From an archaeon (lineage in GTDB: Archaea; Iainarchaeota; Iainarchaeia; Iainarchaeales; JAAZKV01), in the NCBI GenBank assembly GCA_036170245.1, contig JAVHOV010000021.1:1-13515 (forward strand): a stretch of DNA of 13,515 bases, written 5' to 3'. The translations under genes and the position numbers were made by a program. Shown piece by piece: positions 1 through 9,701 of the stretch (position 1 is the stretch's first letter; each line of letters starts with the position of its first letter). Below the pieces are notes generated by a model. That model saw only the letters and a program-made list of their open reading frames with translations. It did no database searches and was not told where the DNA came from.

Positions 1-22
1 AGTAGAGGGGCAACCCTCTATT
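1..22 (+). other. Stem-loop with GCAA (GNRA) tetraloop; possibly the 3' end of a + strand transcript that starts outside the window
   Basis: TAGAGGG(3-9)-GCAA-CCCTCTA(14-20), extendable by G2.T21 and A1-T22. Confidence 0.4.
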
Positions 23-91
23 TATGCCTGTTTATAAATCATTTCTACAGAGCCTGTTTTTAAGAAACTAATAATTGTTCTCTTAAAAAGT

Positions 92-6340: not shown

Positions 6341-6553
6341 TAGCCCCTCCCAGATTCGAACTGGGGTATCAGGCTATCTTCAGGTTCCGTTAAGTTTCGC
6401 TGTATCGAGTAAGCTTTAGCTTACGAAGATACTTCTTCATTGCAAAAGTTCTTCAAACTTTTGCGATGCCCATAAATCTCTGATTTATTGGGTCGCGAAC
6501 CTTAGCAAGGTTCCTTCAAAGGCCTGCATCCTTAGCCACTAGACGAAGGGGCT
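6341..6553 (-). tRNA. tRNA-Gln(UUG), intron-containing; exons 6553-6516 and 6375-6341; CCA not encoded
   Basis: Spliced sequence AGCCCCTTCGTCTAGTGGCTAAGGATGCAGGCCTTTGA|AGCCTGATACCCCAGTTCGAATCTGGGAGGGGCTA (73 nt). Acceptor stem AGCCCCT/AGGGGCT with the archaeal Gln A1-U72 pair, anticodon stem CAGGC/GCCTG, anticodon TTG at 6519-6517, T-arm CCCAG-TTCGAAT-CTGGG. Confidence 0.96.
6376..6515 (-). other. 140-nt tRNA intron at canonical position 37/38 with a bulge-helix-bulge-type splice motif
   Basis: Central 4-bp helix CUUU(32-35)/GAAG, bulges GA|A and AU|A, and a short outer helix (GG/CU or AGG/CCU). Removing the segment restores a 7-nt anticodon loop. Confidence 0.92.
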
Positions 6554-6677: not shown

Positions 6678-7523
6678 TTAATTTTTTTTAAAACCTAATA
6701 AATCCTCATTTTTTCTTTTTTTGATTAATTGCTTGTAATTTTCTTTTGTTCTTATTGATTTCCCTATTCTATTTTCTGCGTCTTTTCTAGCATTTCCTGC
6801 TACTTCGCCCCCTTCTTTGGCTGCTTGTTCGCATTCAATAAACCCATTTGAGTTTTTGCTTTTTGTAACTTCAGTTGTTACTTTTTCTCCAAGCATTGAA
6901 AAAATTAATTCCAAATCACTCATGTGATCTCTAAGATTCTCATTTTTTAAGTCCTTAAATTTTTTATACTCGCTTGGAGTCATTCCGAATGTTTCTTTAC
7001 ATATTTCTGCAGTAAGAATAGCATATTCTTTTTCTATTCCAACGTTTCTTTTTTTCCATTCCTCAGTTAGTTCGTCTCTGATTGCTATTCCTCTAGATCT
7101 TTTTTCAATCCAAGCTTCATTGTACCCCTTGGCTTTATACAATTCTTTCATTCTTTTTTGGGCAAGTTCAGGATCTTGTATTTCTTTTACTCTGTCATAT
7201 CCGACTTTTGCTAGCCATAGTTTGAATGGTTCTGCTTTTGGTGAGGGGATTGATTGGATTATTCTAAAAGCACCTTCGGTGTTGACACAATTCATATTTT
7301 GAAATCCGCCCAAAGTTGTTATCTTAAGGGTATGTACAATTTGTACCCATCCTTTGGTTAGTTCTTCATCTCTTTGTCTTAATTTATTTATGTATTGCTT
7401 AATATCTGTTGAATTAGTTAATGCAAGTACAACATCTTCTAAAACAAACCACCATTCTTCATTGAACCAGGTTTTTCTGATTCTTTTATCCTCAAAGACT
7501 GCCAAACTGTTTTCTTGATTCAT
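6678..7523 (-). CDS. BRO-N domain (phage antirepressor-like) DNA-binding protein
   Basis: N-terminal 'IRKTWFNEEWWFVLEDVVLALT', then 'FRIIQSIPSPKAEPFKLWLAKVG' and 'NLRDHMSDLELIFSMLGE...GGEVAGNAR'. Confidence 0.88.
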   Translation of the reverse strand: MNQENSLAVFEDKRIRKTWFNEEWWFVLEDVVLALTNSTDIKQYINKLRQRDEELTKGWVQIVHTLKITTLGGFQNMNCVNTEGAFRIIQSIPSPKAEPFKLWLAKVGYDRVKEIQDPELAQKRMKELYKAKGYNEAWIEKRSRGIAIRDELTEEWKKRNVGIEKEYAILTAEICKETFGMTPSEYKKFKDLKNENLRDHMSDLELIFSMLGEKVTTEVTKSKNSNGFIECEQAAKEGGEVAGNARKDAENRIGKSIRTKENYKQLIKKRKNEDLLGFKKN

Positions 7524-9223: not shown

Positions 9224-9448
9224 TCAAATTAGTTCTTTTAGTTGTTCTCTTGTAATATTCAAATCCTGTTTCATTATTTTATTTAGTAATCCTTCAGGTA
9301 TTGGGTTTTTTGAGTGATAAGGTATTGTCAATCTTCTTCCATCAGGATGAACGAAGTTTTTATGAGATCCTTTTTGTCTGCTTTCAATAAACCCTAGTTT
9401 TGAAACTATTTTGCATAAATCTTGAGGGTATATCACAGGAAGCTTCAT
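9224..9448 (-). CDS. hicA: HicA family toxin (mRNA interferase)
   Basis: 'LGFIESRQKGSHKNFVHPDGRRLTIPYH' contains the GSH motif. The ATG at 9448 is preceded by AGGAG. Confidence 0.92.
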   Translation of the reverse strand: MKLPVIYPQDLCKIVSKLGFIESRQKGSHKNFVHPDGRRLTIPYHSKNPIPEGLLNKIMKQDLNITREQLKELI

Positions 9449-9459
9449 AATAAAGACTC

Positions 9460-9678
9460 CTAACAAACAGCAACTTTTACTAATCCGATAACGCTAGTAG
9501 TGACTTTTGCTTTAGATTCTTTCATTCCTTCTACATGTAACTCAATAGCTTCTTTTATATTTTCAAGAGCTTCTTCAACAGAGTCTCCATATGAGTAGCA
9601 ACCTGGAAGAGTTGGCACTGATGCATAAACTTGTCCAGTTTTCTTGTCTTTCTCTAAGACTACATCAAAGTCTAACAT
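9460..9678 (-). CDS. hicB: HicB family antitoxin, short form without a DNA-binding domain
   Basis: 'YASVPTLPGCYSYGDSVEEALENIKEAIELHVE'. The ATG at 9678 is preceded by AGGTGA. Confidence 0.92.
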   Translation of the reverse strand: MLDFDVVLEKDKKTGQVYASVPTLPGCYSYGDSVEEALENIKEAIELHVEGMKESKAKVTTSVIGLVKVAVC

Positions 9679-9701
9679 CAAATTCACCTATTTATTATTG
9701 G

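Follow-up and report, generated by a model that had tools for sequence, protein, structure and literature searches.

The window, by which we mean the entire 13,515-nucleotide stretch analysed here, carries on its minus strand a tRNA-Gln(UUG) gene that ARAGORN, when searching for introns, calls at 6553-6341 with an intron of 140 nt, and that a default scan without long introns misses. The intron lies at 37/38, directly behind A37, and its boundaries are fixed independently by three relatives (L004-L006) in which the gene is intronless and the exons are identical; the joined exons equal these intronless genes, and precise removal of the insert gives a normal tRNA. The first-pass annotation, whose quoted sequence pieces all lie where it placed them on the minus strand, had proposed a 140-nt intron in this gene, which the ARAGORN call and the identical exons of the intronless relatives bear out. 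The features of the locus are:

6516..6553, minus strand: tRNA-Gln(UUG) 5' exon, A1 to A37, 38 nt, identical to the intronless genes of L004-L006
6376..6515, minus strand: intron at 37/38, 140 nt, absent to the base at the syntenic locus of genome G008
6341..6375, minus strand: tRNA-Gln(UUG) 3' exon, 35 nt, CCA not encoded
6513..6521, minus strand: BHB 5' half, with CUUU at 6521-6518, bulge GA^A at 6517-6515 and outer-helix GG at 6514-6513
6375..6383, minus strand: BHB 3' half, with outer-helix CU at 6383-6382, GAAG at 6381-6378 and bulge AU^A at 6377-6375
6493..6513, minus strand: element 'head', a 7-bp hairpin GAACCUU-GCU-AAGGUUC followed by GCGA, starting at intron position +3 and recognised by family pattern and covariation
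6438..6492, minus strand: 55-nt cassette of hairpin A (6492-6469) and hairpin B (6468-6438), placed at GCGA^AAG and absent from the orthologue L191
6402..6432, minus strand: tail hairpin of the GUAUC-UUC-GU...AC-UC-GAUAC type, common to other Gln introns and to non-intron copies
6382..6400, minus strand: decayed inverted head GCGAAACUUAACGGAACCU, which pairs with the head as long-range stem and BHB outer helix

The splice motif is a canonical BHB in which CUUU (tRNA positions 32-35) pairs with GAAG as a 4-bp helix between the two 3-nt bulges GA^A and AU^A, and its outer helix, one G.U and one G-C pair, is only 2 bp in the canonical register and is lengthened by the head-to-tail rod described below. 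The first-pass annotation had carried its long-range stem on into this motif; the AGG/CCU register that it chose leaves a 2-nt bulge, so that the register competent for splicing is offset from it by one. The gene is the only one assembled for its anticodon in the genome of the window (G000), which uses the CAA codon 4974 times and encodes both EndA (one 172-aa unit) and RtcB, and we therefore predict splicing. On this sequence evidence we regard the insert as a genuine BHB tRNA intron, predicted to be spliced by EndA and RtcB. That it is instead an unspliced insertion that inactivates the gene, or an assembly artefact, is very improbable: the G000 assembly is 86% complete, so that a second tRNA-Gln(UUG) copy could be missing, but the exons are identical to the relatives' intact genes and the BHB is canonical, 34 of the 38 family genomes have one tRNA-Gln(UUG) 5' exon, in single copy in each, and contigs of two sequencing runs, possibly the source of the assembly, cross the intron without differences. 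Position 37 (window 6516) is A here and in all 19 matched genus relatives, and G in several sister-genus genomes.

In position, 4-bp helix, paired 3-nt bulges and the presence of EndA and RtcB, the intron is like the canonical archaeal 37/38 BHB introns treated in PMC5829648 and PMC8450103, from which it differs in its length of 140 nt and in being built from a dispersed repeat family. PMC4033280 gives 'less than 100 nt' as the rule for archaeal tRNA introns, and the 54 introns of the family described here range from 40 to 140 nt, with 9 above 100 nt and the tRNA-Gln(UUG) copy the longest, which supports the earlier remark that the intron is long for archaea; the selfish element that the annotation named as an alternative is supported too.

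The minimum free energy structure contains the three hairpins and the four-way junction that the first-pass annotation had drawn, at -43.3 kcal/mol (z -5.37, with none of 200 shuffles as good). The long-range stem UAAGGUUCGC/GCGAAACUUA has 9 of 10 pairs, as claimed, the other being G.A, and it appears in this structure as 4 + 4 pairs around a 2x2 loop with pair probabilities of 0.85-0.94. The description 'almost fully base-paired' is overstated, since 47 pairs account for 94 of the 140 nt (67%), and the annotation missed a perfect 7-bp local hairpin, GAACCUU-GCU-AAGGUUC at 6513-6497 of the minus strand, which is the hallmark of the family. The local head hairpin and the long-range stem compete, the forced fold having -39.7 against -43.3 kcal/mol, and the stem excludes the hairpin because both use the arms of the head. 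A scan of the window against Rfam at E<=1 gave nothing on the intron and one chance microRNA match elsewhere, and the intron contains no convincing ORF in linear or circular form. A group I intron was set aside, there being no Rfam match and the intron ending in U rather than in a terminal G, and hammerhead and group I readings were both ruled out on sequence by comparison with their consensus.

Read along the minus strand, the intron opens with a 21-nt head (hairpin plus GCGA) and continues through the two hairpins of the 55-nt cassette and one more hairpin to a decayed inverted head; the head belongs to a repeat family. Its pattern matches 28 of the 38 family genomes and 45 of the 196 order genomes, where the reversed pattern used as a control gave 0 and 1 matches, and the exact 21-base pattern is found in 34 GTDB records, namely 7 of Ca. 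Iainarchaeum, 20 of other archaea, 5 labelled Altiarchaeota and 2 bacterial ones in which the family's tail is absent. A viral collection gave 10 matches to the head pattern, none with the family's tail, and these were treated as chance; neither these 10 viral loci nor 9 others of bacterial look enter the 153-copy, mismatch-strand and 144-copy counts given here and below. The outer pairs of the head hairpin covary, as 135 of the 153 copies have a Watson-Crick third pair where shuffling gives 76 on average and 94 at most (the inner four pairs are fixed by the search pattern), and since the head copies are related to one another, these counts and p-values overstate independence.

The contexts of 144 distinct head copies, a set that still holds the bacterial-looking L236 and L243 and one chance match on contig C2, fall into a few kinds. 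Introns at 37/38 account for 54, spread over 14 anticodon classes and all in sense orientation, with the head beginning at intron position +1 in 45, +2 in 6 and +3 in 3; intron position was scored at 37/38 only, and all scored intron copies lie there. A further 28 have a flanking direct repeat, 9 abut a tRNA 3' end, 8 abut a tRNA 5' end on the other strand, and 45 lie in other contexts, RNase P RNA included. The direct repeats are 15-50 bp long and are usually a duplicated gene or tRNA end, the gene staying whole, and copies flanked by them occur at the starts and ends of protein genes; by eye, the flank recurs in inverted form behind several heads. GCGA forms the 3' end of the heads; their 5' flanks vary, with no fixed target tetranucleotide ahead of the head. 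In a count of 71 introns of at least 20 nt, 45 contain a sense head and none an antisense head. G000 itself has 8 clear heads, with family introns in tRNA-Gln(UUG), tRNA-Glu(CUC) and tRNA-Gly(GCC). One of its heads lies inside what we take, from sequence motifs, to be the RNase P RNA gene (G000:C26:13590-13612, minus strand), as do heads in L085 and L099, and genome G012 has further cassette copies at other places within RNase P RNA.

The cassette is separable from the rest. A metagenomic orthologue of the tRNA-Gln intron, L191, has the same 5' exon, AG offset, head type and tail hairpin and is without bases 6492-6438. Six tRNA-linked sites (in tRNA-Gln, two types of tRNA-Trp, Gly(UCC), Gly(GCC) and a tRNA-Met leader) have a long allele that differs from a short one by such a cassette of 50-58 nt, always at GCGA^AAG and with no duplication, and the long and short members of one pair, L092 and L218, are otherwise almost identical. 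Free-standing cassettes give 12 matches at E<=0.05 in G000, at 11 loci, with 0 in the reversed genome; one adjoins the 16S rRNA end, and the cassette also occurs in opposite orientation within other heads. A strict cassette pattern, which proved too strict, was found in 1 of 61 phylum genomes. Since an orthologue lacks exactly the cassette, and the cassette also occurs elsewhere alone, the four-way junction is an element inside an element. Immediately downstream of the tandem tRNA-Lys genes at G000:C6:12621-12837 (minus strand) lies a copy of the cassette.

Intron presence among the relatives is patchy. In genus g1, 17 of the 19 genomes with tRNA-Gln(UUG) are intronless (4 of these calls coming from abutting BLAST halves, with one family genome left unscored), and 8 family genomes have a tRNA-Gln(UUG) intron, of 25-140 nt. 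The four-way junction is therefore not conserved, an orthologue being without the cassette and most genus relatives without the intron, and a conserved, cloverleaf-like functional RNA is not supported; the 140-nt cloverleaf is not special in itself. At the syntenic locus of G008, where the upstream Bro-N gene is 91% identical, the intron is absent to the base, with no target duplication. In an EF-2 tree built from 30 genomes, of which 28 were scored, intron presence needs at least 5 changes, 4 of which are forced by well-supported branches, and the near-identical sisters G021 and G002 differ in intron presence. No polymorphic or empty intron allele was found in the contigs of four DNA runs, two of them possibly the source; an intronless joint in run X7 was rejected as an empty allele, its pieces being short, diverged and probably from another organism.

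The same pattern bears on a different history, in which an old Gln 37/38 intron was repeatedly lost, for example through cDNA of the mature tRNA, and was homogenised by gene conversion with hairpins associated with stable RNAs, with no present transposition. The Gln introns of genera g1, g3 and g5 do share tail type and BHB ends, the absence is base-precise and without target duplication, G000 encodes DGR-type reverse transcriptases, and no dedicated mobilase was found, all of which suit such a history. It leaves unexplained, however, the copies between 15-50-bp direct repeats at the starts and ends of protein genes and the near-identical heads in records labelled Altiarchaeota, and it requires many more losses in g1 against the two gains of the alternative, so that we consider it unlikely.

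Several arrangements around this gene were seen in passing. Behind the intronless tRNA-Gln of G008 the tRNA 3' end and its flank are present once more (L007:1570-1750), and a GCACCTT...AAGGTGC hairpin lies between the two copies. The Bro-N gene directly upstream of tRNA-Gln(UUG) (window 6678-7523, minus strand), syntenic in G008, has four paralogues in G000, and a Bro-N gene adjoins tRNA-Trp in L077.

The far end of the intron connects the element to the splice motif. In intron copies the final 30 bases form a decayed inverted head, scoring above shuffles in 43-44 of 54; non-intron copies have little of this relation (49 of 88). Within isoacceptors the tails fit their own head (14.5) better than swapped heads (13.5; p 0.0002, with kinship partly remaining). 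A gapped head-to-tail test was positive for intron copies only, and the 10-bp long-range stem, scored without gaps in all 153 copies, did no better than shuffled tails (7.67 against 7.51). Among 23 hand-picked short intron copies, assessed by shuffle tests, column 3 covaries both with column 15 in the head hairpin (100% paired, 6 compensatory changes) and with column 86 in the BHB outer helix (97% paired, 6 compensatory changes, 4 of 500 shuffles). Of the 54 family introns, 46 have a BHB central helix of 3-4 pairs and 39 an outer helix of at least 2 pairs. The long-range stem of the first-pass annotation gains from the comparison, as the same head-to-tail rod is predicted in the two orthologous Gln introns (3 of 3 Gln orthologues in all, and 29 of the 54 family introns) and each tail tends to match its own head better than a swapped one. 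We read the head as having two predicted folds, a hairpin that may be the element's own signal and a rod that would make the insert spliceable.

Mismatches indicate which strand the inner hairpins suit. After the head, the inner hairpins read on the tRNA strand have 38 A.C against 6 G.U mismatches (9 against 2 distinct contexts), the reverse of a tRNA-stem control (9 A.C against 65 G.U) and of the head itself (3 against 10). The intron folds to -52.9 kcal/mol as antisense against -43.3 as sense, and across the family the folding energies show no preference for a strand. Mixed as it is, we take this result as moderate evidence that selection did not act on the inner hairpins as excised RNA, and it bears on the reading, close to that of the first-pass annotation, in which the excised and possibly circular intron RNA has a selected function or serves as a protein-binding scaffold. 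We judge this improbable. It could draw on the strong fold, the covarying hairpins, the invariably sense orientation of intron copies and the rod predicted in 29 of the 54 introns, but the cloverleaf depends on a cassette that an orthologue lacks, most relatives are intronless, the intron modules also occur in never-spliced DNA in either orientation relative to transcripts, the wobble-type mismatches of the inner hairpins favour the antisense strand, as does the fold of this intron, and no Rfam family matches.

That the intron is a guide for box C/D methylation, comparable to the tRNA-Trp intron of euryarchaea, is very improbable. AUGAAGA (intron 76-82) and CUGA (133-136) are present and fibrillarin is encoded, but AUGAAGA arises where the cassette is joined and L191 and G031 lack it, CUGA belongs to the BHB, Rfam gives no match, and the 12 nt before CUGA find a perfect complement only at their own locus, with no rRNA contig among the matches listed. 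The Haloferax tRNA-Trp C/D-guide intron, as presented in PMC4090602, is likewise long, structured and at 37/38, whereas the present intron has no conserved boxes or guide, is patchy in presence and is unmatched in Rfam. Ten tRNA-Trp(CCA) introns of 75-136 nt (L077, L081, L092, L094, L186, L217, L218, L227, L229 and L241) are copies of the hairpin element, and they are apparently not of the euryarchaeal C/D-guide type.

We therefore favour, at a probability of about 0.7, the reading that the intron is a nested, non-autonomous and likely mobile hairpin element tolerated as a host-spliced intron, its splicing being predicted; the excised RNA is then most likely a by-product and not a dedicated functional RNA. 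Under this reading the head end of the element would join precisely at stable-RNA boundaries or gene ends, and its far end would come to hold either 15-50 bp of the target in direct repeat or the head in inverted form, as by template switching during insertion. After nucleotide 37 only sense copies would survive, in which the first bases of the head pair with the far end and complete the BHB. The cassette would have entered later, or arrived as a gene-conversion copy, at GCGA^AAG, so that an intron of about 84 nt grew to 140 nt and the four-way junction was formed, and the host splicing endonuclease and RtcB ligase would free the pre-tRNA of the whole. Mobilisation in trans by a single-strand, hairpin-recognising enzyme is our guess. 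A larger claim, which we put forward tentatively and at less than even odds, is that the element is the archaeal counterpart of an 'introner': mobile and non-coding, it would create the splice signal by its own insertion, its first bases and an inverted head supplying the BHB outer helix, would switch between a hairpin for movement and a rod for splicing, and would itself be the target of a smaller element; if so, it would be a concrete route of tRNA intron gain in DPANN archaea.

A close precedent is the transposed tRNA introns of the Thermoproteales (Fujishima et al. 2010, as related in PMC4033280 and PMC4090602), for which movement at the DNA level is supposed. There, similar intron sequences occur in many tRNA genes, comparable to the 14 anticodon classes here, and on sequence grounds the present locus would be classed both as a BHB intron and as part of a multi-isotype intron family of that kind. 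It differs from those families, as far as the same accounts describe them, in that the intron body is also found outside introns, with target duplications and with a second element nested within it. The mechanism of intron movement in Thermoproteales is called unknown in a review (PMC4090602), a 2026 preprint (10.64898/2026.10.13.758758) found no general route to tRNA introns in Asgard archaea, and direct repeats near introns are treated in general terms in PMC11782384. No description of the hairpin-element family was found in the literature searched, subscription papers and bioRxiv supplements lying outside that scope. What the tRNA-Gln(UUG) site offers is a set of matched empty, short and long alleles, together with a three-way covariation that links the head hairpin to the splice motif, and an intron body that is a repeat family also seen unspliced and with target duplications, which makes intron gain testable with defined substrates. 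The site offers a likely path for the origin of tRNA introns in archaea.

The element works like a REP- or MITE-type repeat, but it lacks their tag and target. The REP/BIME-like GTAG and CGTC families, as described in PMC3733652, are likewise short imperfect palindromes with paired units that insert in palindromes, and some of them likewise have no dedicated transposase. The hairpin family differs from them as there described in having no terminal tag, a lower copy number and long direct repeats, in targeting stable-RNA boundaries and in serving as a splice substrate. Membership of the GTAG/CGTC REP families was rejected, the heads having no terminal GTAG or CGTC tag, and so was a classical MITE, the duplications being absent or 15-50 bp rather than fixed and short, with no linked transposase; as to the terminal inverted repeats of MITE type, intron copies have the decayed inverted head, which is weak in other copies. 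By eye, the left ends of the lineage's IS200-type elements (CTCGC/GAGCG, purine linker, hairpin, GAAAGCGAG) have a layout like that of the type-A tail, and the cassette inserts without duplication, points shared with IS200/IS605 left ends and their non-autonomous derivatives, a group treated in PMC3201880 and PMC5027513. Against this likeness, the element's covariance model is unmatched there and no fixed tetranucleotide precedes the head. Homology to IS200 left ends was not supported, the covariance model giving no match at E<=5; the model's match at L286 is a tRNA-Glu intron.

No mobilising gene was found beside the head copies when 283 neighbouring ORFs were clustered. In the family survey, whose draft assemblies drop multi-copy elements, a Y1 transposase occurs in 6 of 38 genomes and a reverse transcriptase in 8 of 38, with no co-location with copies, and no Y1 transposase was found in the assembled G000. 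G000 has two GIY-YIG genes, with no head beside the short one, which was inspected. The low copy number also speaks against mobility. A LAGLIDADG endonuclease gene on the opposite strand adjoins an intron-bearing tRNA-Asp at L221:485-1540 (minus strand), and also in L197 and L244; it is a possible helper for intron spread, and no such gene lies beside tRNA-Gln(UUG).

Contigs of G000 break at the ends of multi-copy insertion sequences whose interiors are unassembled, at window 1-54 (plus strand) and at the ends of contigs C2, C6, C7, C8, C12, C14, C15, C17-C20, C24, C27, C28, C33, C34 and C36. One type of contig end matches the IS200-type TnpA elements of relatives, with a left end after TTAA and a hairpin plus GAAAGCGAG. 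Finally, the window contains a hicB-hicA toxin-antitoxin pair at 9224-9687 on the minus strand, which has several paralogues in G000.
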